64,000 nucleotides of DNA, taken from the NCBI GenBank assembly GCA_009841015.1, contig VXMQ01000109.1, forward strand, positions 1,767 through 65,766, given 5' to 3'. This DNA is from Candidatus Palauibacter denitrificans (GTDB taxonomy: Bacteria; Gemmatimonadota; Gemmatimonadetes; Palauibacterales; Palauibacteraceae). The notes under the pieces were generated by a model. The model searched no databases. It was not told the origin of the DNA and saw nothing but the letters and a program-made list of their open reading frames with translations. Position numbers and translations under genes: made by a program. Below are positions 3,691 through 55,092 of this stretch, piece by piece. Numbering within the stretch: position 1 is the stretch's first letter; the number at the start of each line of letters is the position of its first letter.

Positions 3691-5642
3691 CGCTCCGAAT
3701 CTGGCCTTTCGCCCGGAAGCGTGCCACCGGTGTCGGAGGCGTCCCCTTCGGCCGTGTCCCCGCCGCCCTCCGCGCGCTCGACGTGCGGGCGGAGGAACCC
3801 GGCCCGGGCGAGCCGTGGCTCCACGAGTTCCGCCTGCTCGCGCAGCCAGCCAAACCAGACGATGTCACCGGGCCTCAGCGTCGTGCCGCTCGACACCGGT
3901 TGTTCCCGTCTGCCGCGGCGATGAACGAGGGCGAGGGTGGGGAACCGGCGGTCGGCCAGAGCCTCGATCTGGGAGATGCGCAGCCCCGCGAGGCCCTCGA
4001 AGGTGAGCGGTTCGATGTCCACGCGGTCTCGCCGGAACTCGTGCGCCCAGCGCTCGTGGTCGATCCCGAGCCCGAAGAGTACGGAGGCGCCGCTCTCGTC
4101 GACCTGCTCGGGTCCGACTCCGGGCGTAAGGGGATCGATGGCCACGAGGCGGTTCACGCCGGGGCAACTCTCTTCGACCCGTTTGGCGATGAGCAGGTTC
4201 ACGCCTTCGTTCGGCGTGAGGGCGACGAGGGCACGGCGCGATTCCACCCCCGCCTTCAGGAGCGCACGCGGCTCGTTGGCGTTTCCGAGCACGACGCGGA
4301 AGCCGTCGCTCTCCGCCGCCCCCGCCTCCGTCGGATTCGTGTCGATGAGAACGATGGGTGCGTCCGCGCCGCGGGCGGCGCGCAGGGTTCGGGCGAGGGC
4401 GCGTCCGATGGGATTCGCCCCGACGATGGCGAAGCCGTGGTTGGACAGTTTCCGCACCCCCAGCAGCCGCGCCACCAGCCCGCCCGTCCCGCCGAGGACG
4501 ACGACGGTGACGGCGATGACAAGGAAGACCATCGCTCGCAACTGATTGCCTTCCGCCTCCATCCCGCTGTGCGCGAGTTCCGCCGCGAACAGCGAGGAGA
4601 CGGCGAAGGCGACGATCCCGCGCGGAGCCAGCCAGGCCAGGAACGCCTGCTCGTTGCGGCTCAGGCCGGCGCCCCGGGTACAGAGGAGAACGCAGAGGGG
4701 GCGGACGACGGCGACGAGGACGATCACGGTCACGATCCCGCCCGCTCCCAGCGCCCGTACGTCGCCGAGATCCACCGCCGCCGACAGGAGGACGAAGAGG
4801 AGTCCGACGAGCAGAAACGTGAGCTGCTCCTTGAACTCGACGAGTTCGCGCGCATGCCGGGGTCCCATGTTGCCGACGACGAGGCCGGCGATGGCGACGG
4901 TCATGATCCCGCTCTCGGGCAGGATGGCGTGTGAACCCTGGTAGAGCGCGAGGACGCATGCGAGCGTGAAGATGTTCCTGAGATCCGAGGGGATCGCGCG
5001 CCGCATCCTCAGCAGTCCGCCGATGATGACCCCTCCCGCCACGCCGATGACGGAGCCGAGGCCCAGGCGCGTGACGAGGCCGAGGAAGCCAGCCCCCACG
5101 TCCCCGGCCGTTGACGCGAGCGCCAACTCGAACGCGACGACCGCGAGGATCGCGCCGACGGGATCGATGAGGACGCCTTCCGCCTCGAGGATCGTCCGCA
5201 GGTTGCTTCGCAGCCGGATCCGCCGCGTGAGCGGGTTGATCACCGTCGGACCCGTGACCGAGACGAGCGCCCCGAACAGCAGCGCAATGCGGAGGCTCCA
5301 GCCCAGCGCGAGCATCGCGGTGACGGCGGCCCCCGCGATGGTGACCAGCGCGCCGAGCGTGATCAGTCGGCGGATCGTCAGCGCCTCGCGGCGGAGACGG
5401 TCGAGGTTGAGTTGCAGCGCGCCCTCGAAGAGGATCACCGCGACCGCCAGCCCGACGATGGGATTGAGACCTTCGCCCAGCGTGTCGGGCCGCACGACGT
5501 TCGCGAACTCGGGCCCGAGGAGGATGCCGGTCGCGAGCAGGAAGAGGATGCCGGGTACGCGTGCATGTCGCGCCACCGACTGCGCAACGACGCCCGCGGT
5601 GATGGCGAGGGCGAAGGTGAGCGCCGGATCGTGGAGGTTCAC
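3687..5642 (-). CDS. Cation:proton antiporter (CPA family) with cytoplasmic RCK/TrkA-N and TrkA-C regulatory domains
   Basis: 651 aa. N-terminal Na+/H+ exchanger membrane domain (MNLHDPALTFALAITAGVVAQ..., about 12 TM helices) followed by a Rossmann-like TrkA-N segment (GFAIVGANPIGRALARTLRAARGADAPIVLIDTNP) and a TrkA-C-like C-terminus. GTG start overlaps the upstream gene stop (GTGA). Confidence 0.85.
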   Translation of the reverse strand: MNLHDPALTFALAITAGVVAQSVARHARVPGILFLLATGILLGPEFANVVRPDTLGEGLNPIVGLAVAVILFEGALQLNLDRLRREALTIRRLITLGALVTIAGAAVTAMLALGWSLRIALLFGALVSVTGPTVINPLTRRIRLRSNLRTILEAEGVLIDPVGAILAVVAFELALASTAGDVGAGFLGLVTRLGLGSVIGVAGGVIIGGLLRMRRAIPSDLRNIFTLACVLALYQGSHAILPESGIMTVAIAGLVVGNMGPRHARELVEFKEQLTFLLVGLLFVLLSAAVDLGDVRALGAGGIVTVIVLVAVVRPLCVLLCTRGAGLSRNEQAFLAWLAPRGIVAFAVSSLFAAELAHSGMEAEGNQLRAMVFLVIAVTVVVLGGTGGLVARLLGVRKLSNHGFAIVGANPIGRALARTLRAARGADAPIVLIDTNPTEAGAAESDGFRVVLGNANEPRALLKAGVESRRALVALTPNEGVNLLIAKRVEESCPGVNRLVAIDPLTPGVGPEQVDESGASVLFGLGIDHERWAHEFRRDRVDIEPLTFEGLAGLRISQIEALADRRFPTLALVHRRGRREQPVSSGTTLRPGDIVWFGWLREQAELVEPRLARAGFLRPHVERAEGGGDTAEGDASDTGGTLPGERPDSER

Positions 5643-6550
5643 GAGGCGGCGGCTCGCTCCATCGCGAGGAGGAAGTTCGTGAAGCCCTCGTCGTAGTCGG
5701 AGAGGCCGTTCTGCCCCGTGAGCTTCATGCGGGCGTTGTAGGCATTCTTCATCATCGGACCCACGACGCCGCTGACCGGACCCTCCGCGGGGTGGCGCAC
5801 GGCGAACGCGTCCTTCAACTCCTCCCGGAGTCCGAGTTCGGCGAGGAGGCCGTTGTATGCGGCGGCGTCCCGCTCCGCCAGCACCCAGAGGTGGCGGTCC
5901 AGGCGCTCGCTGTGTGCCGACTGCTCGAGCACGGACTCACCCGAACGCACCAGGGAGAGATAGCCGAGCACCTGCGCCTCGACTTCCTTGAGGTATCCCT
6001 TGCGGTGGCAGAATTCGTGCGCGATCACGTGCGGTTCGAAGATGCCCGTGCTCCGGAAGATCGCGACGTCTCCCGTCAGCGGGTCGGCCGCCCCGAGCGC
6101 GAAGGGGAAGACGATCTGCGCCAGCATGAACTCCCGGACCTGCGAACTCGTCTCCAGGCGCTGGCCGGTGAGTTCCGCCAGGTAATCGGTAAGGCACAGG
6201 TCGACCTGTTTCGCCAGTTCCTTCCGCGGCGTATCCATCGGCACGTAGCTTGCATTCAGCCGCTCCACGAGGTCCTCGACATCGCGTCGCCGCTCTTCCT
6301 CCGACGCCGGAGGTGGGGAGAGCGGGTCGAAACCGAACGCAGCCTCGAAGTCCACGCGGCGGGCGTCCGCCCGAACCGCCCAGTCGATGAGCGCGCTGCC
6401 CGCGTAGACGCCGAGTGCCGCGGCTTGCACCGCCCGGCCGGCCGGGCTCAGACCGAAGAGCACCCGGGCCGCGACGGGGGCGGCGAGCAGGAGATCGGAG
6501 GGCGCGACCGGGAGGTACGTCGCCAGGTTGGGGATGCGGAGTCTTTCCAT
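5639..6550 (-). CDS. Putative zinc-dependent hydrolase with HExxH motif (DUF3810-like)
   Basis: About 303 aa, starting from the internal ATG (MERLRIPNLATYLPV...). The motif VIAHEFCHRKGYLKEVEAQVLGY contains HExxH. The N-terminal 220 codons of the listed ORF 5639..7210 are low-complexity (PPPPPRQRSRSPP) and overlap the opposite-strand OMP gene, so I trimmed them. Confidence 0.55.
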   Translation of the reverse strand: MERLRIPNLATYLPVAPSDLLLAAPVAARVLFGLSPAGRAVQAAALGVYAGSALIDWAVRADARRVDFEAAFGFDPLSPPPASEEERRRDVEDLVERLNASYVPMDTPRKELAKQVDLCLTDYLAELTGQRLETSSQVREFMLAQIVFPFALGAADPLTGDVAIFRSTGIFEPHVIAHEFCHRKGYLKEVEAQVLGYLSLVRSGESVLEQSAHSERLDRHLWVLAERDAAAYNGLLAELGLREELKDAFAVRHPAEGPVSGVVGPMMKNAYNARMKLTGQNGLSDYDEGFTNFLLAMERAAAS

Positions 6551-9856: not shown

Positions 9857-10641
9857 CAGCGCGCCCCTCCCGTCAGCAGGTGTTCGCCGCCATCCACGTG
9901 AATCGTCGCTCCCGTCACATAATCGTTCTCGGCCAGGAACCGCGCCGCGTGCGCCACGTACTCCGGATCGCCCGTCCGCCCGAGCGGGACCCTCCGCCCC
10001 TTCTCCCGCCAGGCCGCGCCCTCCGCCGTCTCGCCGGGAGGCGGAAGAATCGGGCCGGGCACGATCGCGTTCGCGCGCACCTCCGCGCCCAGTTCGCGGG
10101 CCGTCAGCGCCGTCAGGTGCAGGAGTCCGGCCTTGCTGACTCCGTGCGGCGCAAACCCCTTCCAGGCGGCGAGCGCCGACATGTCCGACATGTTGATTAT
10201 GACGCCGGGCGCCCGAGGTTCCCTCCGGCTTCCGCGCCGCTCGGGCACGGCGCGCATTCGGACGGCGGCCCGCTGCGTCATCAGGAAGGGAGCGCGCAGG
10301 TTGAGCGCCAGTGCGGCGTCCCACTCGGCGACCGTCGTTTCGGCGAACGGAGTACGGTCGAAGCTCGCGGCGGAGTTCACGAGGATGTCGAGGCGCCCGA
10401 ACGCCGCGTCGAACGCCTCGAACAGGTCGTCGATCTGTTCCGGGCGCGAGAGGTCCGCCGCGGCCGTCGCCGCGCGGCGCCCCAGGGCCCGCACCTCGCT
10501 GGCGGTGCGGTCGGCCGCCTCGGCCGAGCTCCGGTAGTGGATGAAGACATCGCACCCCGCCTCGGCCAGGCCCAGCGACAGCGCGCGGCCCAGCCGGCGC
10601 GCGCCCCCCGTCACGAGTGCGACGGCACCCTCGAGTTTCAC
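9856..10641 (-). CDS. Short-chain dehydrogenase/reductase (SDR); pteridine reductase/FolM-like by context
   Basis: 261 aa from an internal GTG (VKLEGAVALVTGGARRLGRALSL...) with GGAGAGG upstream. It has the TGGxxxxG NAD(P)-binding motif, NSAAS, and the catalytic Y/K region (HGVSKAGLLHLT). It sits directly upstream of folB-folK in the same operon. Confidence 0.8.
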   Translation of the reverse strand: MKLEGAVALVTGGARRLGRALSLGLAEAGCDVFIHYRSSAEAADRTASEVRALGRRAATAAADLSRPEQIDDLFEAFDAAFGRLDILVNSAASFDRTPFAETTVAEWDAALALNLRAPFLMTQRAAVRMRAVPERRGSRREPRAPGVIINMSDMSALAAWKGFAPHGVSKAGLLHLTALTARELGAEVRANAIVPGPILPPPGETAEGAAWREKGRRVPLGRTGDPEYVAHAARFLAENDYVTGATIHVDGGEHLLTGGAR

Positions 10642-10802
10642 GGCACCTCTCCGTTCACGAGCGTCTCCCCGGCAGCCCCACGCCGGCGGAGCCGGGAATG
10701 TACAAGGTTCGAGAACGGATGGGGCGTTGCACGCACGGACGCCGCGCGCCCCATTGCGGTACCACCCGCGTCGGGCGAGGGGATGCAACCCGGAGGAGAC
10801 GC

Positions 10803-11795
10803 GTGAAAGCGATCTGGTACGAGCGGACCGGCCCCGCGCCGGACGTGCTCCAATTCGGGCGGCGGGACGCGCCCGTGCCCGAAGCCGGAGAGGTCCGGGT
10901 GCGGCTGGCCGCCTCGGGAGTGAATCCATCGGACACCAAGCGGCGGGCCGGCTGGATCGGCCTGTCGATGCCTCACCCGCGCATCGTACCGCACTCCGAT
11001 GGGGCGGGGACGATCGATGCGGTGGGGGCAGGGGTGGACCGGGCCCGCGTCGGCGAGCGCGTCTGGCTGTGGAACGCCCAGGGCGGCGGCCGTCCGTTCG
11101 GCACTGCGGCGGAGTACACGGCGGTGCCGGCCGCGCAGGCCGTGCCGTTGCCGGACGGCGCATCCTTCGCGGACGGAGCGGGGCTCGGAGTGCCGGGCTG
11201 CACCGCGCACTACGCCGTGTACGGGGACGGGCCGGTGGGCGGCAAGCGGATCCTCGTGCAGGGCGGCGCCGGGGCCGTCGGCCACCTGGCGGTGCAGCTT
11301 GCCACGCTGGGAGGCGCCGACGTCATCGCCACGGTGAGCGGCGCCGCCAAGGCGGAGGTCGCGCGGGGCGGCGGCGTGCGGCACGCGATCGACTACCGGC
11401 GGGAGGACGTCGCCGGCCGGGTGCTCGACCTCACCGATGGGGAGGGCGTGGACCGCGTCGTCGAGGTGGACCTCGCCGCGAACCTCGAGACGGATGTCGC
11501 GGTCCTGCGGGAGAACGGGACGATCGCGTCGTACTCGTCAACCTCCGGCCCGGAACTGCCGCTCGCCTACTATCCGCTCGCCTTCAAGGACCTACGCATA
11601 CATTTTGTGCAGGGCTACCTGCTCCCGCCCGCCGCCCGCCGCGCTGCGGTCCGGGACCTCACCACCTGGCTCGCGGCCGGACAACTCGACGTGCGGATCG
11701 CCGCCACGTTCCCTCTCGCGGAGACGGCATCCGCCCACGAGGCCCTCGAGTCCGGCCGCGCGGACGGAAAGATCCTCGTCGAGATCCCGCTGTAG
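10803..11795 (+). CDS. NADPH:quinone oxidoreductase / zinc-binding alcohol dehydrogenase family (MDR) protein
   Basis: 330 aa from a GTG with GGAGGAG SD (VKAIWYERTGPAPDVLQFG...). Cofactor-binding GxGxxG (LVQGGAGAVGHLAVQLA). The upstream part of the listed ORF overlaps the SDR gene on the other strand. Confidence 0.8.
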   Translation: MKAIWYERTGPAPDVLQFGRRDAPVPEAGEVRVRLAASGVNPSDTKRRAGWIGLSMPHPRIVPHSDGAGTIDAVGAGVDRARVGERVWLWNAQGGGRPFGTAAEYTAVPAAQAVPLPDGASFADGAGLGVPGCTAHYAVYGDGPVGGKRILVQGGAGAVGHLAVQLATLGGADVIATVSGAAKAEVARGGGVRHAIDYRREDVAGRVLDLTDGEGVDRVVEVDLAANLETDVAVLRENGTIASYSSTSGPELPLAYYPLAFKDLRIHFVQGYLLPPAARRAAVRDLTTWLAAGQLDVRIAATFPLAETASAHEALESGRADGKILVEIPL

Positions 11796-11819
11796 TCGCC
11801 AGCCGACGAAGGGGTCGCG

Positions 11820-13493
11820 CTACTGCACCCGTTCGAAGCGCAGGTCCCAGACGCGTCCCTGACTCAGGCTCGCCTGCGTGACCCGGCCGGTCTCGTCGCG
11901 CCGGAAGATGAACGTGCTGCCTCCCTGCCTGAACGCATCGGGATAGACCGGCTCCAGCGACGGTCCGTCCCCGTACCGGTCCCTCAGCACGAGCCCGCCG
12001 TCTTCGACCTCGACCCAGTACGTCACTTCCGCCTCGTCGCTGTGGTAGGCGCCCACGTAGGCGGCCAGGTCCGACGCGGTGGGCTCGAATCCCTCCACCG
12101 GTTCGATCCTCACGTCGTCCGCTACCGGCGTGTCCATGGTGGCCCCCGGCCTCGCTCCGTCACCGGTCGCCGCGTCGAAGACGATGGACACGCCCGCCGG
12201 GGAGGCGAACTCGGTCTCGCTCAGGGCGGCGAGGGACATCCCGCCGGGCCCCGCTCCCATGCGCAGCGAGGCGCCGTCCGCCGTCAACTCCATGAACTGG
12301 CCCGTGCGGGTGTCGCGATATCCGCCCGCGAACGCGGCGACGCGGGCTGGATCGACGTCCGCCCCCGCCGGATCCTCCGACGCCTCCTCGTCGATGGCGT
12401 CGCCGAGGTAGAGTTCGGCCACCGCGCGGGCGAGCCCGCCGGGGTTGGCCTCGCCCACGTTACACATCACCGACACCGCGAGCCCGTGGTCGGGGAAGCG
12501 GGTGAGGAAGCCGCGGTACGCCGCGGTGCCTCCCGAATGCTGGACCTCGCGCACGCCCTTGTACTCGCCGACGAAGAGCCCGCCCGCGTAGCTGATCTGC
12601 CGCCCGGAGTCGAGCATCCCCTGCTCATGCATGAGCCGGATGAACTCGGGCCCGCCGACCTCGCCCGTGTCGAGGTTGCGCGTGAACCTGAGGAGGTCGC
12701 CGACGGTCGTGAGCAGGCCACCGTTCCCGTGCACGTTCTCGAACGGCATCAGCATGTGCCATTCGCCGTCGTCGCCGCGCCGGTATCCGATCGAGCGCTC
12801 CTCGACGATCTCGGTGAAATCGTCCCGCCACTGCGTCTTCGTCATGCCGAGGGGGCGGAAGATCCGCTCCTGCGAGAACTCGTCAAACGTCTGTCCGGTC
12901 ACCCGCTCCACGAGCATCGCTTGGAGGTTGTATCCCGTGTTCGTGTAGGAGTAATAGCGGCCCGGCTCGTAGTTGAGGGCGCGCTGGCGGCTCGCGATGT
13001 CGAGCGCGTGCTTGTGCGTGTGGATCCGGGTCGTCCGCGCCCAGCCGTGGATGCCGGCGACCGACCCCCAGTCGCGGAGCCCGCTCGTGTGATGGATGAG
13101 CATCCGCACCGTGATGGGCTCGCCGTAGTCGGGCATCTCCGGGAAGTACTCCCGGATGTCGTCGTCGAGGTCGATACTTCCGTCCAGCGCGAGCAGGATC
13201 GTGGCCGCCGCGGTGAACTGCTTCGAGACCGAGCCCGGCTCGAACACCGTCTCGGGCGTGTTCGGCAGGTCCCACTCGAGGTTCGCCATGCCGTAGGCGC
13301 GGGCCATGACCTGCTGCCCATCCCGCGAGACCGCGAAGGCGCACCCGGGGCCGTCCGAAGCGCTGTAGTCCGCGAATACGGCGTCGAGCGCCCCGAGTTC
13401 GACGGCCCCCGCGGACGAATCGTCGCCGCCTGTGTCCGCGCAGGCGATTCCCGCGGCGAGGGGAAGGATGATGGTCCAGAGTCGTGTCTTCAT
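11820..13493 (-). CDS. Serine hydrolase, beta-lactamase/transpeptidase fold (class-C beta-lactamase / esterase family), lipoprotein
   Basis: 557 aa. Lipobox LAAGIAC, the S-x-x-K active-site motif (GSVSKQFT), YxN-like YSYTNTGYN, and HSGG. It is a tandem paralog of 13662..15335. Confidence 0.85.
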   Translation of the reverse strand: MKTRLWTIILPLAAGIACADTGGDDSSAGAVELGALDAVFADYSASDGPGCAFAVSRDGQQVMARAYGMANLEWDLPNTPETVFEPGSVSKQFTAAATILLALDGSIDLDDDIREYFPEMPDYGEPITVRMLIHHTSGLRDWGSVAGIHGWARTTRIHTHKHALDIASRQRALNYEPGRYYSYTNTGYNLQAMLVERVTGQTFDEFSQERIFRPLGMTKTQWRDDFTEIVEERSIGYRRGDDGEWHMLMPFENVHGNGGLLTTVGDLLRFTRNLDTGEVGGPEFIRLMHEQGMLDSGRQISYAGGLFVGEYKGVREVQHSGGTAAYRGFLTRFPDHGLAVSVMCNVGEANPGGLARAVAELYLGDAIDEEASEDPAGADVDPARVAAFAGGYRDTRTGQFMELTADGASLRMGAGPGGMSLAALSETEFASPAGVSIVFDAATGDGARPGATMDTPVADDVRIEPVEGFEPTASDLAAYVGAYHSDEAEVTYWVEVEDGGLVLRDRYGDGPSLEPVYPDAFRQGGSTFIFRRDETGRVTQASLSQGRVWDLRFERVQ

Positions 13494-50122: not shown

Positions 50123-51970
50123 ATGGAACGCTTCCCGATCCGGATGATCGCGCTGTTTGCCATGTTGCTCCTCCTGCTGCCGCCGGAGGCCACGGCTCGG
50201 CAGGTGAACGTCGGTCTGCCCGCGGACCGGCTGGCGCACCGTCCGGCGGTGCCGGGCCCGAACGGGCTCGTGACGGCTGGCCATCCGCTGGCGTCCATGG
50301 CGGGTCTCCGCACGCTCATGGCCGGGGGCAACGCCGCCGACGCCGCCGTCGCGACCCTCGCCACGCTGAACGTCGTACGGCCGCAGATGTCCGGGATGGC
50401 GGGGAACGGGTTCGTCACCCTCTACGACCGCGTCTCCGACCGTGTGTACTCGCTCGGGGCCACAGGCGCCGCTCCGCTGGCCATCGATCCCACCAGCCGC
50501 ACGGCCGACGAGTTGAACAAGGGGATTCACGCGGGCGTCGTCCCCGGCCTGTTCGGGGGATGGATCGCCCTTCTGGACCGCTTCGGCACCATGAGCCTGG
50601 CGCAGGTGCTCGCCCCCGCCATCGACTACGCGGAGAACGGCCATCCGATCGAGGCGTCCGTGGTGGCGGCGATCGAATCCCACCGGGAGCTCTTCGAGAG
50701 CTTCCCATCCAGCCGGCGGATGTTCCTCCCTCGCGGCAGGGTGCCCGAGCCCGGGGAAACGTTCCGGATGCCCGACTTGGCGAACACGCTCCGCAGGGTG
50801 GTCGAGGCCGAGCAGGAGGCGCTGGCGGCCGGCGGGACGCGATCGGAGGCGCTCGGGGCCGCCTTCAACCGCTTCTACCGGGGCGACATCGCGGAGGAAA
50901 TGGCCCGCTTCTACCGGGAGCACGGCGGCGACTTCACCATGGAGGATTTCGCCCGCTACGAGCCCATCTGGGCGGAGCCGGTCCACACCACCTACCGGGG
51001 CTACGACGTGTACACCAGCCCGCCGACGTCGCGCGGAGGGCTGGAGGTCGCAATGCAGCTGAACCTCGTCGAGGGGTTCGACCTGGGGGCCCTCGGCGCG
51101 GGCAGCGCCGAGACGACCCACCTGCTGTCGGAGGCGATCAAGGTCGCGAAGGCCGATGTCTACGCCTACGCAGCCGATCCCGCCCTGGTCGACGTGCCCG
51201 TCGACGAATTGCTCTCGAAGGACTACGCGGCGGCCCGGCGGTCCCTCATCGACCCGTCCCGCGTGATGGCGTACCCGGGGTCCGGGAATCCCGTGCGCGT
51301 CGACGAAATTCAGGTGGGTGTGCCGGAGGCCTCACGACCGGGGCCCGCGCCGCTGCGCGGCCATCTTGCCGAGCGGTCATACGAAGGCAGCACGACCAGC
51401 TTTTCCATCGCCGACCGGTTCGGCAACGTCGTCGCCGCCACGCCCACCCACGGCGGGGCCTTCGGCACGGGGGTGGTGGTCGGCAACACCGGCCTCACCT
51501 TCAACAACGGATCACGCATCGGCTCGACGTCGCCGTACCCCGACCACGTGAACTACGTCCGGGGAGGGCAGATCCCGATCCTCAACAACTCTCCCATCAT
51601 CGTGCTCAGGGAAGGTCGGTTCCACGCGGCGCTGGGAACGCCGGGCGGCGAGACGATCGGCCAGACACAGTTCCAGGTGCTCGTGAACCTCCTCGACTTC
51701 GGGATGCCGGTCCAGAAGGCCATCGCGGCGCCCCGCTTCACCCTGAGCGGGGAGCCGAACTTCTACCGGCCCGGAGCCGAGATCCGTTTCCGCCTGGAGG
51801 ATCGCCTGCCCGACGATGTGGTCGGCACGCTGGAGGCGTTGGGATACACCGTGGAACTCGCCCCCGGTTATGCCTTCGGCAGCATCCAGGGCATCACCTA
51901 CGATGCCGCGACCGGCGCCCTCATGGCCGGCGCCGACCCGCGCCGCGTCGCCTACGCCGTCGGATGGTGA
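50123..51970 (+). CDS. ggt: Gamma-glutamyltransferase, secreted
   Basis: 615 aa from the ATG with AGGAAGG SD (MERFPIRMIALFAMLLLLLPPEATA signal). The autoprocessing/catalytic Thr context GSTTSFSIADRFGNVV and the GGxxI motif (LGTPGGETIGQT). Confidence 0.9.
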   Translation: MERFPIRMIALFAMLLLLLPPEATARQVNVGLPADRLAHRPAVPGPNGLVTAGHPLASMAGLRTLMAGGNAADAAVATLATLNVVRPQMSGMAGNGFVTLYDRVSDRVYSLGATGAAPLAIDPTSRTADELNKGIHAGVVPGLFGGWIALLDRFGTMSLAQVLAPAIDYAENGHPIEASVVAAIESHRELFESFPSSRRMFLPRGRVPEPGETFRMPDLANTLRRVVEAEQEALAAGGTRSEALGAAFNRFYRGDIAEEMARFYREHGGDFTMEDFARYEPIWAEPVHTTYRGYDVYTSPPTSRGGLEVAMQLNLVEGFDLGALGAGSAETTHLLSEAIKVAKADVYAYAADPALVDVPVDELLSKDYAAARRSLIDPSRVMAYPGSGNPVRVDEIQVGVPEASRPGPAPLRGHLAERSYEGSTTSFSIADRFGNVVAATPTHGGAFGTGVVVGNTGLTFNNGSRIGSTSPYPDHVNYVRGGQIPILNNSPIIVLREGRFHAALGTPGGETIGQTQFQVLVNLLDFGMPVQKAIAAPRFTLSGEPNFYRPGAEIRFRLEDRLPDDVVGTLEALGYTVELAPGYAFGSIQGITYDAATGALMAGADPRRVAYAVGW

Positions 51971-51986
51971 GGCCCGTCAACGCGAA

Positions 51987-53057
51987 TCAGGCAGCCTCGT
52001 CGTCTACAGTTGACAGTATTCTTCGCCAGTCGCCCGACAGGCGCGTCAGCTCGTTCGCTTGAACCCAGACCTGTCCTCCGGCTCGCTGAACCTGGCCATA
52101 GGCCCAGCGAGCGATCTGAAGCGTCGCCCGCCAGTTATGGAGAACCCGTCGCTCCTCGAAGCCGGCCTGCAGTTCGTCCCGGCAAACGCGGTTCCGTTCC
52201 GTCCAGCGTTCGAGGTGCTCTTCCGCCGCGAGGAGGTCCGACTTGCTCGAGTTACACCCCTGGTGGGCCAGTACGAAGTTGTGTCCCAGGTCGAGCGAGT
52301 ATCGTCGCCACGGGATGAAGTGGTCGACATCGCCACCGGACTTGATGTCGCTCTCGCAGTAGAAGCAGCGGCCCCGCTGCACCGCCCTGAGGAGGGGACG
52401 ATAGATGTCAAGCGCGGTGCGTTGGGAGCCGAAGAGGAACGACCGCAGGTCGACGACCTGGCCCAGACGCTGAGGGTTGAGCCGCTGGACGAAGTGCGAC
52501 CATGCTCCCTCGATCACGTCGGTAACCAGAGGATAGAACACCCGAAAGCAGTAGGCGACGCCGGATTGTAGCCGAACCGACCCGCCTCTATCGACGTTCT
52601 CGTACAGGAACTCGAGGCGTTCCGACCCGACCGTCTGCAACTTCCAGAGCGGCATCTTCCTTACCGTCTGCTCCACCCTGCGCCGGAGGTTGTCCCAATC
52701 CGGGCGGCTTCTCTCAAGCTCGACCAGGGAGCCCTGGTAGCGGTTGTGGTGCTCGGCCAACTCGCGGACAACCAGTGCCTGTCGGCCCGTGTTCTGGTGC
52801 AGGATCCCCGCGTTTTCGCCGGCGGGGTAGGGTATTGCCTGAGGCCAGTACAGCCGCACGAACTGTTCGGCAATTTCGGCGGTGGACAGTTCAAGTTCGT
52901 CCCCACTGTCGTCACCCTCGACGAGGCACAGGTCAGCGATGGCATGGAGCAGCGCGAACTTGTAACTGGACGTGAAGCTGCCCTCGTCGAGCAGGCGCTG
53001 GAGCGACCGGAGAAACTCGAGCTGCCCTTCGGCTGTCGGCGGCCGTGGCTCGTTCAT
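51987..53057 (-). CDS. HNH-nuclease domain protein with an uncharacterised roughly 250-aa N-terminal domain
   Basis: 356 aa from the internal ATG (MNEPRPPTAEGQLEFLRSLQ...). C-terminal His-Me finger: CFYCESDIKSGGDVDHFIPWRRYSLDLGHNFVLAHQGCNSSK (CxxC ... DH ... H ... N). The N-terminal domain (FTSSYKFALLHAIADL...) is not recognisable to me. The ATG overlaps the upstream gene stop (ATGA). This patch is visibly lower-GC than its flanks. Confidence 0.75.
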   Translation of the reverse strand: MNEPRPPTAEGQLEFLRSLQRLLDEGSFTSSYKFALLHAIADLCLVEGDDSGDELELSTAEIAEQFVRLYWPQAIPYPAGENAGILHQNTGRQALVVRELAEHHNRYQGSLVELERSRPDWDNLRRRVEQTVRKMPLWKLQTVGSERLEFLYENVDRGGSVRLQSGVAYCFRVFYPLVTDVIEGAWSHFVQRLNPQRLGQVVDLRSFLFGSQRTALDIYRPLLRAVQRGRCFYCESDIKSGGDVDHFIPWRRYSLDLGHNFVLAHQGCNSSKSDLLAAEEHLERWTERNRVCRDELQAGFEERRVLHNWRATLQIARWAYGQVQRAGGQVWVQANELTRLSGDWRRILSTVDDEAA

Positions 53058-54253
53058 GAGTCCCAGTACGCAGCGTGCTCGGGCAGGACCCAGCGAATCC
53101 CGCCTCTCGGGTCCGCCACATCTCCCTTGAAGCGGGGGATCACATGTATGTGCGCGTGCCCCACGGTCTGGCCGCCCGCCCGCCCCTCGTTGATCCCCAC
53201 GTTGAAGCCGTCGGGATTGAGTTCCGCTTGAAGCCTTGCCCTCACGCCGGAGACGAGGCTCCATATGTCCGCCTGGACCTCGTCATTTCGGGCGAAGAGG
53301 GTCTCCGTGTGCTCTCTGGGGACTACGAGCGTGTGGCCGCGGCTCACCGGATACCGGTCCTCGACCGCGAGAGCATGCCGCGACTCGGCAACCACGGATT
53401 CCCTGGGCACATCGCAGAAGGGGCAGTCGGCCTCTTGGACGGCGGCACCGCGCGAACTGGCGGTAGCCTCCCGGGTTTCTCGAGGCCACCAGATCATCCC
53501 TTCCATTAACTTCGTTTCATCTCGAGCTGCGGTCAGAGCGGAGATATCGTCCACATGGCGGCTCATGACCACGGCGGACACCGCTGCGTCGAAGGCGTCC
53601 TCGGACGACATGGCCTTGCACGCGAGTGAGCCCTCTATTTCTGGCAGTCCCTGATCCAGATACGCCTGCCGCGCATCGAAATCGGACTTGTTCACCGGGC
53701 CCGTGAGCAGTCGCGGGTAGATCTCGATCACCAGTGGCATCCGCACTTCATGAAACGGCCAGATCGAGAAGCCCGCCGCGCGGAGCGTTGGCAGGTGAGG
53801 CATTGCCCGGATCGAGCCGGTGCCCACCGCACCGCCGCCGCCGATCTGGAACACGCTCTTGGGATTCGAACCCGTCCTCCCGGACAAGTCGCGTTCGGTG
53901 CGCCGAAAATGGTGGCGCAGCTTCGGCTTCCCCTTTCCCGGTCTTCCCCAGAACGGGGGCGGGCAGCTGCTTAGCCATTCTTCTCCCTGGGTGGAGACGA
54001 CGTCCCAAAGTTCTTCTATCGATGTCGCGCCCAGGTGCTCGGCGAACCAGAGGGGGAAGGAGAACCCGAAATCCAGGCCAACCACCACATCGGAGTCCGC
54101 CGCCGCGTCGTCGATCAAGTGGCGGATCAATTCGCCGCGGTCGCGGCCGGACTCCAGGCGAGCCAGGCGCCCGTCCCGTACCTCGGCGAGCCAGATCTTC
54201 GACGACGCCCCCGATTTCGCGCCGGACCAATCGACGGCGATGGCGCGGGTCAT
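53054..54253 (-). CDS. Fusion protein: N-terminal RNase-H-fold (RuvC/YqgF/DUF429-like) domain plus C-terminal HIT (histidine triad) nucleotide hydrolase
   Basis: 399 aa. The N-terminus MTRAIAVDWSGAKSGASSKIWLAEV resembles the first beta-strand and catalytic Asp of RuvC/YqgF-like RNase-H-fold proteins. The C-terminus has the HIT signature GQTVGHAHIHVIPR (HxHxHxx). Its ATG overlaps the upstream gene stop (ATGA) and its stop overlaps the HNH gene start (ATGA). Confidence 0.75.
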   Translation of the reverse strand: MTRAIAVDWSGAKSGASSKIWLAEVRDGRLARLESGRDRGELIRHLIDDAAADSDVVVGLDFGFSFPLWFAEHLGATSIEELWDVVSTQGEEWLSSCPPPFWGRPGKGKPKLRHHFRRTERDLSGRTGSNPKSVFQIGGGGAVGTGSIRAMPHLPTLRAAGFSIWPFHEVRMPLVIEIYPRLLTGPVNKSDFDARQAYLDQGLPEIEGSLACKAMSSEDAFDAAVSAVVMSRHVDDISALTAARDETKLMEGMIWWPRETREATASSRGAAVQEADCPFCDVPRESVVAESRHALAVEDRYPVSRGHTLVVPREHTETLFARNDEVQADIWSLVSGVRARLQAELNPDGFNVGINEGRAGGQTVGHAHIHVIPRFKGDVADPRGGIRWVLPEHAAYWDS

Positions 54254-55092
54254 CGCCGTCCCGCGCCAGGAATGTGGGGGCCTCGGGCGTTCGGACGAGG
54301 TCCGGCGCGGAGGACGTTGACGGGGGCCAGGTCGGGGTGGCGGCAGGCGGCGAGGCGGAGGATGAAGGTGTCGACGAGGGCGTGCTGGCCGGACAGGCTC
54401 GCGTGGCTGACCATGTCGGTGAGGACCATCCAGGCGGAGAAGGGCGGGAAGCGGATCTCGCGCCAGGTCTCGTCCCGCTCCTGGAAGGCCGGCGTGTCCT
54501 TCATGTAGTTGTGGAAGCGCCGCATGAGACGGTCGTACGGACTGGAGTCGGCGAGCACCGCCTCACCCAGCCCCGCCTTCGCGATCCCCCGCAGCAGGCG
54601 TCCGCGGAGACGGTCCACGGGGCCCCGCGCGAGCGAGCCGCCGTCCGCCACACCCGCCTCCGTCCCGTAGAGGGCGAACACGTCGGGGAACGTCCCCTTC
54701 GTACACCACACGCGGTCCTCGTCCGGGTTCACGTTGACGAAGAAACGGAGGATCCGGTCGCCGTCGGTCGCCCCGTAGGCGCCGGCGTCGAAGTGGATGA
54801 GTTCGTTGCTCGCGTGCGCGGCGAGGCCGCGGCCCCGCTCCTGAATCGGGCGGAAGCTTGTCGTCCCCACCGTCCACCCCTCGGTGAGCGCGGGCAGGCA
54901 CTCCCGCAGGAAGGCGCGAACCCTGGCGCCGTGCGCAGTGAGGGTGTCGAGAACGGCATCCCGCAGCCCTCCCTGCGACGCGACGCCGCGAAGACGCCCG
55001 CTCTCGGGGTGGTAGCTGACGTTTTTCGCGCGCAACTGCCGCGGCAGTTGCGTCCGCAGCCGCTCGAGATCCGCGTGCGGCGGGAGCTCCAC
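54250..55092 (-). CDS. Hypothetical protein, possible Fe(II)/2-oxoglutarate-dioxygenase-like (Kdo-hydroxylase/DUF2257-like); first gene of the coupled triplet
   Basis: 280 aa from a GTG. A HxD...H arrangement (LIHFDAG ... VSHASLSGQH) is compatible with a 2OG-oxygenase facial triad. Composition is protein-like, unlike the overlapping 640-aa plus-strand shadow ORF. The assignment is weak. Confidence 0.45.
   Translation of the reverse strand: MELPPHADLERLRTQLPRQLRAKNVSYHPESGRLRGVASQGGLRDAVLDTLTAHGARVRAFLRECLPALTEGWTVGTTSFRPIQERGRGLAAHASNELIHFDAGAYGATDGDRILRFFVNVNPDEDRVWCTKGTFPDVFALYGTEAGVADGGSLARGPVDRLRGRLLRGIAKAGLGEAVLADSSPYDRLMRRFHNYMKDTPAFQERDETWREIRFPPFSAWMVLTDMVSHASLSGQHALVDTFILRLAACRHPDLAPVNVLRAGPRPNARGPHIPGAGRR

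Follow-up and report, generated by a model that had tools for sequence, protein, structure and literature searches.

HNH endonucleases share a beta-beta-alpha-metal core with the catalytic histidine of a D-H pair, a structural asparagine and a metal-binding histidine or asparagine, often together with two CxxC-type pairs of zinc ligands. In a stretch of 64,000 nucleotides from Candidatus Palauibacter denitrificans (this whole stretch is called the window, and coordinates refer to it unless another locus is named), an HNH endonuclease gene and a directly upstream gene that fuses a DUF429-like domain to a histidine triad (HIT) domain form a compact cassette between ggt and a Kdo-hydroxylase-like gene. 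Comparison with related genomes makes it very likely that this cassette is an accessory element spread horizontally or by recombination, while the chances that it serves defence or conflict, a reading drawn from sequence and genomic context, appear roughly even.

The closest counterparts of the nuclease are the McrA-like and type II–IV HNH restriction endonucleases (COG1403; ScoMcrA, R.KpnI), which have the same CxxC…DH…N…HxxCN core, a separate N-terminal domain and a similarly patchy distribution over plasmids and defence islands; some sources indeed label homologues of the cassette nuclease 'McrA'. However, their reader domains (SBD/ScoMcrA_N, SRA, PUA, DUF3427) are unmatched by the N-terminal domain of the cassette protein in sequence or Foldseek comparisons, and they lack the obligate upstream HIT or small-molecule methyltransferase gene that accompanies the cassette HNH gene. 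The HNH effector of Septu (PtuB) and retron I-A (TIGR02646) gave the best PADLOC match (E ~1e-6) together with weak NCBIfam and PDB matches, but the similarity spans only the core, some 50-60 residues. A Septu (PtuAB) or retron-Septu assignment was rejected, as the HNH gene in the window is flanked by the HIT fusion and ggt, with no PtuA ATPase or reverse transcriptase as neighbour.

For the partner protein, the nearest defence-related parallel is ThsC, the accessory HIT protein of Thoeris type II (PADLOC; PMC8565338). ThsC is a HIT-family hydrolase encoded in a defence operon and resembles the cassette HIT domain with E 3.6e-11 to 1e-13, which suggests, by analogy, a nucleotide-signal-degrading role for the latter. 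Thoeris pairs its HIT protein with ThsA/ThsB (TIR/SIR2), whereas the cassette pairs HIT with an HNH nuclease; neither ThsA (SIR2/SLOG) nor ThsB (TIR) was found near the window cassette or in the occupied loci with genes examined, and a Thoeris type II assignment was set aside. The best sequence and structure matches lie in the Fhit / bacterial Hit / Rv2613c branch, with which the cassette HIT domain has the HxHxHxx motif in common; unlike these proteins, it is fused to a DUF429-like domain, ends in a conserved C-terminal tail (DPRGGIRWVLP) and is coupled to a nuclease. The other half of the fusion recalls DUF429 (PF04250), for instance in the RNase HII–RelA/SpoT fusion MSMEG_5849, in its RNase H-like topology, its acidic residues and its fusion to a nucleotide-related domain (PMC3985635, PMC3153485, PMC4429107), but DUF429 proteins fuse RelA/SpoT or NUDIX, and the window protein fuses HIT. 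DUF429 has been classed as RNase H-like (PMC3985635), and RNase HII activity is documented for the domain in M. smegmatis MSMEG_5849 (PMC4429107). In the view of Majorek et al., DUF429 is 'unlikely to be mobile', but the DUF429-like branch found in the cassette clearly is.

Restriction–modification (R-M) and toxin–antitoxin pairs resemble the cassette in having the control gene first, overlapping codons, precise insertion, a presence/absence distribution and atypical composition. The cassette differs from them: DNA methyltransferase motifs and a proteic antitoxin fold are both absent, and its partner is an enzyme of the kind that acts on small nucleotide-like substrates. Type II R-M was rejected, since the HNH gene of the window is paired with a HIT hydrolase and the alternative partner in Gammaproteobacteria lacks DNA methyltransferase motifs. 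No NCBIfam model scored above cutoff for the cassette proteins, and a weak PADLOC match to PDC-S44 fell on the DUF429-like domain. No description of the pair emerged from literature searches on HIT (or histidine triad) together with HNH, defence, operon or antitoxin.

Occupancy, age and composition of the cassette

To compare the locus across relatives, one genome per species was scanned for the ggt protein, and nine window proteins were mapped onto the recovered loci, 13 of which share the TK-ggt / Kdo-RidA-PQQ arrangement (Candidatus Palauibacter type). The spacer that separates the stop codons of ggt and the Kdo-hydroxylase-like gene is empty (about 0-54 bp, or with the coding sequences (CDSs) abutting) at six loci (L010, L011, L024, L026, L027 and L053), and measures about 380 bp at two others (L006 and L060), where it holds only a small coiled-coil open reading frame (ORF) of about 110 aa. 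The two-gene cassette stands alone in the window (matched by L001) and in L008 (Ca. P. rhopaloidicola), and is combined with the small ORF in L012 and in L002, of which L003 is a partial copy. L007 retains an intact HIT-fusion gene next to an internally deleted HNH pseudogene (L007 11852-12303), in which residues 1-48 and fragments of 233-355 can be recognised. The inspection of orthologous ggt/RidA neighbourhoods that the preliminary description had proposed has thus revealed a clear presence/absence polymorphism, with six empty sites, four species (five loci) bearing both genes and one bearing a decayed copy. That description had also held that the same genes, syntenic and of identical composition in related genomes, would speak against an acquisition: L008, L012 and L002 do carry them at the same site with a guanine-plus-cytosine (GC) content of 0.627-0.640, but six spacers are empty. 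With its five states among sister species, the spacer is a natural experiment in the gain, loss and allelic replacement of a minimal element devoid of mobility genes.

A neighbour-joining tree of the concatenated flank proteins interleaves occupied and empty loci. The occupied L008 is sister to the empty L053 at 4.7% protein distance, and the occupied L002 and L012 fall in a 3-4% clade with the cassette-free L006 and L060; this interleaving requires several events of gain, loss or replacement. The cassette also occurs outside the spacer: L027, with an empty ggt site, and L004, with an ectopic cassette adjoining an M14 peptidase gene and several toxin–antitoxin genes, appear to belong to the same genome, and more distant homologues occupy unrelated sites. 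All three operational marks of an accessory gene, namely empty orthologous sites, a phylogeny in conflict with that of the flanks and an unusual composition, were found.

Synonymous divergence (dS) distinguishes two histories at this site. Between the window and L008, dS is 0.32 for the HNH gene and 0.27 for the HIT fusion against 0.15-0.39 for the flanks, and nucleotide identity is uniform over the region, which indicates that the two copies stem from one insertion and have diverged together with the chromosome. Because both copies and their flanks diverged alike, the acquisition dates back a long way on the scale of the genus. The comparison with L012 and L002 differs: flank dS is 0.24-0.46, whereas the HNH gene reaches 0.58-0.62 and the HIT fusion 1.04-1.08, so that the divergence of this allele is 2-4 times that of its flanks and comparable to that of the ectopic L004 copy (dS 0.82-0.91 against the window). 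Identity to L012/L002 is likewise mosaic, falling from about 0.93 in ggt and the Kdo-hydroxylase-like gene to 0.85-0.91 in the middle of the HNH gene and 0.65-0.78 in the HIT fusion. Excess dS and mosaic identity together reveal a second, divergent allele in essentially the same spacer, brought in either by independent acquisition or by recombinational allelic replacement, and the ggt/Kdo spacer is a recombination hotspot. The ratio of nonsynonymous to synonymous divergence (dN/dS) is 0.09-0.14 for the HNH gene and 0.18-0.32 for the HIT fusion, showing that both genes are under purifying selection and that their function is maintained. Horizontal acquisition, as the preliminary description had suggested, is accordingly supported by empty orthologous sites, an ectopic copy and allelic discordance, but it took place long ago and is not peculiar to this genome.

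The inserted cassette extends over about 2,294 bp (51984..54277), as delimited by blastn and junction alignment against the empty loci L053 and L026 and the occupied L008, and has a GC content of 0.643 against 0.68-0.69 in the flanks. Homology to the empty allele of L053 stops at 51983 and picks up again at about 54278; the left edge of the insert lies only 3 nt past the HNH stop codon, and its right edge 24 nt upstream of the ATG of the HIT fusion. The ggt/Kdo spacer of L053 is 17 nt long, of which 13 nt (51971..51983, GGCCCGTCAACGC) are common to both alleles and retained in the window. Insertion remodelled the 3' end of the Kdo-hydroxylase-like gene (54250-55092, minus strand; Pfam PF11004, E 1e-54) over 54250..54285 (minus strand; junction alignment with L053 and L008). 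The ancestral stop, TGA in L053, is now CGA (54283-54285) in the window and L008, and the ORF gains 10 codons within the cassette before a new TGA (54250-54252) that overlaps the HIT-fusion ATG (54251-54253). The HIT-fusion stop and HNH start share an ATGA at 53054..53057 (minus strand), consistent with translational coupling, and the same overlap or adjacency recurs in homologues; stop and start codons thus overlap at both gene junctions of the cassette in the window. In L012, a 2,320-bp insert directly follows the ggt stop and precedes the small ORF.

The cassette contains no ORFs other than the HNH and HIT-fusion genes and no integrase gene; junction alignment revealed no target-site duplication, and no tRNA gene was found across 44-62 kb. 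Imperfect inverted repeats (28 nt, 75%; 20 nt, 85%) straddle the cassette and were considered as terminal repeats, but their left arms lie inside the ggt CDS and are present in empty-site genomes too, so the repeats were judged chance matches in 70%-GC DNA. With no integrase or transposase, tRNA or target duplication, and with flanking repeats that are short and imperfect, the cassette does not qualify as a classical genomic island or integrative element. No promoter or terminator was found at its edges, and one promoter-like and two terminator-like matches inside the HNH gene are at chance level; the window cassette probably depends for its expression on the transcript of the upstream Kdo/RidA/PQQ genes. 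In the window, it sits within a metabolic operon.

The preliminary description had started from a visibly reduced GC content over the HNH and HIT genes, and sliding-window GC, GC at third codon positions (GC3) and an index resembling the codon adaptation index (CAI) are all low there. The segment 51990-54250 has 64.4% GC against 69.3% over the whole 64 kb; relative to segments of equal length (mean 0.693, standard deviation 0.018) it lies at z ~ -2.7, and only 0.7% are equally low, the sole other patch as GC-poor being 39951-42211. The HNH gene (GC 0.633, GC3 0.787-0.789, i.e. ~0.79) and the HIT-fusion gene (GC 0.651, GC3 0.785-0.787, also ~0.79) fall below the GC3 background of 30 window genes (0.865±0.043), and the HNH gene in addition has a low GC at second codon positions (GC2, 0.43). 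By comparison, GC and GC3 are 0.699 and 0.90 in ggt, 0.715 and 0.89 in the Kdo-hydroxylase-like gene and 0.701 and 0.91 in PQQ-ADH. On the CAI-like index, trained on the window's own genes, the HIT fusion (0.580) and the HNH gene (0.596) rank second and third lowest of 32, after a PIN toxin gene (0.542). The flanks had been called uniformly about 70% GC, which holds for ggt and PQQ-ADH but not for RidA, at only 64.3%. The 16-nt gap to the convergent ggt stop was stated correctly (ggt stop 51968-51970, HNH stop 51987-51989), whereas the layout around RidA needs correction, as the Kdo-hydroxylase-like gene separates the HIT gene from RidA. The low GC of RidA itself (55231-55701, minus strand; GC1 0.64, GC2 0.41) goes with a normal GC3 of 0.88, showing that GC alone can mislead.

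The proposed comparison of tetranucleotide signatures gave a divided result. The raw tetranucleotide distance of 51990-54250 is extreme (top 0.4% of windows) because of GC, whereas the composition-normalised TETRA correlation (0.53 against a mean of 0.56) is ordinary. The anomaly is therefore one of base composition and codon choice, without a foreign oligonucleotide 'dialect', and the tetranucleotide signature was dropped as a mark of foreign origin. Cassette GC is 62.7-64.3% in every occupied Palauibacter locus against flanks of 68-70%, and the homologous module in low-GC hosts is 3-6 points GC-richer than its surroundings; being GC-poorer in the one setting and GC-richer in the other, the cassette keeps an intermediate composition of its own. 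Its persistent low GC is a long-lived property and no mark of recent arrival; the probable reason is that the cassette forms a circulating pool of accessory genes that has a composition of its own. A 5-point GC deficit that outlasts a dS of ~0.3 of co-divergence means that low GC is no clock for recent transfer. Otherwise this is a textbook anomaly, with a short accessory insertion in the genome of a symbiont-type marine bacterium; sequence matches, exact or nearly so, assign the window to a metagenome-assembled genome of the Candidatus Palauibacter / Palauibacterales group of Gemmatimonadota, a marine and sponge-associated lineage (PMC10469786).

The cassette proteins and their conserved pairing

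The HNH endonuclease gene (51987..53057, minus strand) encodes 356 aa. The longest ORF would put the start at 53264, but that ORF overlaps the upstream gene, and the true start is 53057. The protein consists of an N-terminal domain of about 210 aa, the HNH core and a C-terminal helical/beta region (AlphaFold predicted local distance difference test (pLDDT) 88.8). In the catalytic and zinc-binding core (residues 231-272; 52242..52367, minus strand), which reads CxxC...DH...HN...HxxCN, no variation was seen at C231, C234, D245, H246, H259, N260, C268 or N269 among homologues of 33-87% identity, and the AlphaFold model predicts a strand-strand-helix arrangement at residues 243-272. Pfam scores for the window protein fall short of the cutoffs for PF01844 and PF13395 (19.4 bits against 21.4 and 18.3 against 22), while many close homologues bear precomputed annotations with these families. 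In the PDB, both sequence profiles (Cas9 HNH, E 2e-4) and Foldseek matched HNH domains only, chiefly that of Cas9, which was the sole Foldseek match for the core. The invariant motif, the predicted fold and these top matches place the modelled core in the HNH superfamily.

The N-terminal domain (residues 1-210; 52428..53057, minus strand) is predicted to be mainly helical. It has no Pfam match at E<=10, and neither PDB-sequence nor Foldseek comparison gave a match outside the core. Among the 120 listed of 876 homologues that contain it, it is seen only fused to HNH, in proteins of about 350 aa or shorter fragments, and no other architecture occurs. The nuclease family is large, with more than 3,260 homologues in a protein search and more than 540 relatives in a metagenome scan; a search of 50,697 phage genomes gave no match, and in IMG/VR a single contig carries a member.

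The upstream gene (53054..54253, minus strand) encodes a fusion protein of 399 aa with more than 3,340 homologues, mostly of about 400 aa. Its HIT domain (residues 273-376; 53126..53437, minus strand) matches Pfam PF01230 with E 1.5e-20 and 74 bits against a gathering cutoff of 21.5, and is a member of the superfamily by this measure. The histidine triad H-A-H-I-H is encoded at 53144-53158, within GQTVGHAHIHVIPR; in the protein motif H366-A-H368-I-H370-V-I, H368 and H370 are invariant and H366 nearly so. According to PDB profiles, with which Foldseek agrees, the nearest relatives are bacterial Hit proteins, the Ap4A phosphorylase Rv2613c and FHIT.

For the first 262 residues (53468..54253, minus strand), AlphaFold predicts strands at 3-8, 21-26 and 29-35, a helix at 39-52 and a strand at 57-60 (pLDDT 84-95), and D8 (DWSG), D61 (GLDF), E177 and D222 are invariant; the modelled strand order and conserved acidic residues are those of an RNase H-like fold. 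This domain of the window protein and of two relatives has no Pfam match even at E<=10, whereas 5 of 50 sampled family representatives match PF04250 weakly (best E 7.9e-5). As the PF04250 model leaves the window domain unmatched, we regard it as a sister or divergent branch and not as a member by that model, and the label 'RNaseH-fold' given to the gene earlier is reasonable on topology and on the weak matches of the family, without extending to formal DUF429 membership. An exhaustive search for the DUF429-like domain returned 1,144 cluster representatives, of which most are standalone and about 260 aa long; elsewhere it is fused to HD_4, HD, MazG, NUDIX, ADP-ribosylglycohydrolase, HEPN_Swt1, AbiEii, RadC or methyltransferase domains, and most of these partners act on nucleotides.

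A partner gene lies directly upstream of every full-length HNH homologue examined, often overlapping it, except for a 22%-identical Priestia plasmid protein. The partner is a HIT gene (106-133 aa) or a DUF429-like–HIT fusion in L002, L004, L005, L086, L089, L094 and L095, of which L086 is the Aromatoleum EbN1 conjugative plasmid, with the pair among IS21/IS1182/IS630 elements, and L089 a Polaromonas plasmid; in L096, both the HIT and the HNH gene are frameshifted. Among 65 metagenome loci with at least 330 nt of sequence upstream of the HNH gene, 54 have HIT upstream with a gap of -12 to +35 nt, and only 3 of these 54 include the DUF429-like domain, so that bare HIT is the partner in most loci.

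On Acinetobacter and Pseudoalteromonas plasmids and on the one IMG/VR contig, HIT is replaced by a class I S-adenosylmethionine (SAM) methyltransferase of 196-198 aa, and on a Marinomonas plasmid (L090) the methyltransferase gene is frameshifted and the HNH gene intact. This enzyme is of the small-molecule type (Methyltransf_25/23/11, TehB-like) and resembles MADS mad2 in the SAM-binding fold only. An alignment of four sequences contained neither the amino-methyltransferase motif (D/N/S)PP(Y/F/W) nor the C5 motifs PCQ/ENV, and with these motifs absent a DNA-methyltransferase reading of the alternative partner was rejected. In two metagenome exceptions (L118 127-957; L128 716-2056), the upstream ORF was judged NOV_C/DUF3883-like by reading the translations; it may be a third partner type or a mere defence-island neighbour. 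In L094, a ScoMcrA_N+NOV_C protein (5311-6456; Pfam annotation) is a divergent neighbour.

Across the family, the HNH gene neighbours a type I-F CRISPR-Cas system, an ABC-three-component system, McrBC with type I R-M, a Septu-like AAA+HNH pair, a Schlafen/AlbA_2 protein, ScoMcrA_N/NOV_C with a transposase, and TnpB. A PADLOC scan of 129 neighbouring ORFs added type II R-M genes, PDC-S36 and HEC-05.

Candidate roles and competing explanations

The explanation we favour, and consider reasonably probable as a whole, is that an ancestor of some members of the Candidatus Palauibacter lineage acquired the cassette in its short ggt/Kdo spacer. Species would since have lost it, replaced it or exchanged it with one another, the most probable route being homologous recombination across the conserved flanks. 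The HNH protein would be the nucleic-acid-cutting effector of a conflict-type module (anti-mobile-element defence or addiction), with its N-terminal domain presumably recognising a target or ligand. The upstream enzyme would control the nuclease by destroying or converting a nucleotide-like small molecule that gates it, e.g. a dinucleoside polyphosphate. Intact nuclease motifs under selection, a family-exclusive N-terminal domain, a coupled partner drawn from two enzyme types that are unrelated but each usual in small-molecule or nucleotide chemistry, fusions with nucleotide hydrolases and mobile or defence contexts are together best fitted by a conflict module whose partner enzyme controls the HNH protein enzymatically. 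The specific ligand-gating model is tentative and rather doubtful. A broader proposal, which we consider doubtful, is that HIT-or-methyltransferase plus HNH pairs make up an undescribed, widespread class of anti-phage or anti-plasmid immunity in which an alarmone would activate the sensor domain, the partner would set the threshold, and an optional DUF429-like domain would link the pair to the broader set of fusions. The cargo is in any case a conserved and widespread HIT–HNH pair, apparently undescribed, and a candidate defence system; if it proves to be one, it adds a nucleotide-hydrolase-controlled nuclease to the known repertoire and gives a function to the large DUF429-like family.

Several observations weigh against this explanation. 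The window and L008 cassettes, judged by their divergence, look vertically inherited. The GC-normalised tetranucleotide signature is not foreign, and horizontal acquisition rests on comparative data, not on composition. PADLOC v2 recognised only generic HNH (PtuB, Cas9, PDC-M01B) and HIT (ThsC) cores and no system in the cassette, which in Palauibacter sits among metabolic genes, outside any defence island, and the proximity of the wider family to defence genes is qualitative, drawn from 129 pooled ORFs with no control set. The N-terminal domain that would sense the target or ligand has no recognisable fold relative. Finally, the intact HNH gene beside a frameshifted partner on the Marinomonas plasmid suggests that the nuclease is not unconditionally toxic alone, which weakens simple antitoxin or immunity models.

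That last point bears directly on the best-surviving alternative, a toxin–immunity or R-M-like addiction module: the HNH nuclease would be a constant danger to the cell, and the partner would shield the cell by modifying the cell's own DNA or by neutralising the nuclease directly. The gene order, with the partner first and stop and start codons overlapping, would suit such a module, as would a methyltransferase partner in some lineages, the orphan partner that L007 keeps beside its decayed nuclease, and a patchy, mobile distribution typical of R-M and toxin–antitoxin genes. However, the methyltransferase is of the small-molecule type and has neither (D/N)PP(Y/F) nor a C5-cytosine motif, no HIT enzyme is known to modify DNA, and the Marinomonas nuclease persists intact beside a broken methyltransferase gene, so that we consider this alternative unlikely.

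Ordinary vertical inheritance is improbable as an explanation. It would trace the low GC to amino-acid composition, low expression or weak GC-biased gene conversion, and it draws on the equal dS of cassette and flanks between the window and L008, on a GC of 0.63-0.64 kept in every lineage without amelioration, on ordinary normalised tetranucleotides, on the low GC2 of the HNH gene (0.43), which is an amino-acid effect, and on RidA and an LRR gene as GC-poor core genes in the same window. Six syntenic species with an empty spacer of ~0-54 bp, sister taxa that differ in occupancy, the pair at another locus in one genome, an L012/L002 allele diverged 2-4 times beyond its flanks, and homologues on plasmids among insertion sequences all contradict it; moreover, the depression extends to GC3 and codon adaptation and is not confined to GC1 and GC2. 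As a sole explanation it is largely refuted, while some of its factors likely contribute to the persistent low GC.

Nucleic-acid processing and homing are possible roles that agree less well with the distribution of the pair. In a repair module, an aprataxin-like HIT domain would remove 5'-adenylates, the DUF429 domain would cut RNA:DNA hybrids and the HNH protein would nick or resolve, the whole being dispensable and hence patchy. HIT enzymes do include DNA 5'-AMP hydrolases, the DUF429 domain of MSMEG_5849 acts as an RNase HII, and the window cassette is embedded in a metabolic operon. The cassette HIT domain, however, is nearest to Fhit, bacterial Hit and Ap4A phosphorylase rather than to aprataxin, its partners in most loci are bare HIT proteins without DUF429, a small-molecule methyltransferase can take its place, and the plasmid, insertion-sequence and defence-island associations point elsewhere, making this role quite improbable. 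A homing-type selfish element, whose HNH nuclease would cut the empty ggt/Kdo spacer for repair to copy the cassette in, would account for two divergent alleles in essentially the same spacer and for a precise minimal insertion without integrase or repeats, and HNH is a classic homing-endonuclease fold, but it is very improbable given family members of 53-79% identity at many unrelated sites, the absence of the family from 50,697 phage genomes, an obligate enzymatic partner untypical of homing genes, and 90%-identical flanks through which recombination explains the re-use of the site without targeting.

Some further features of the spacer and of the window were recorded in passing. The small spacer ORF (about 110 aa; L006 about 11864-12190, L002 6367-6714, also in L060 and L012) has a hydrophobic N-terminus and coiled-coil 'REMGELRE' repeats, is found in the same spacer with or without the cassette, and matches no Pfam family. 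A separate group of ggt loci (L009, L013-L023 and L025; ggt at 10001-11845), from metagenome-assembled genomes (MAGs) labelled Longimicrobiales or 'Gammaproteobacteria', has ggt 84-87% identical but none of the window's other neighbour genes, so that either the ggt context differs or the bins are mislabelled. The GC-poor patch at 39951-42211 (64.1%) lies within a gene (39454-42726, plus strand) whose 1090-aa product combines LRR, Big_2 and M66-peptidase-like domains; eukaryote-like repeat proteins of this sort are typical of symbionts. As GC3 stays normal in this gene (0.84), the dip there comes from amino-acid composition. The PIN-domain (VapC-like) toxin gene (57948-58367, minus strand), with a Phd/YefM-type antitoxin ORF upstream, was undetected in some syntenic relatives and is 79-86% identical in others.

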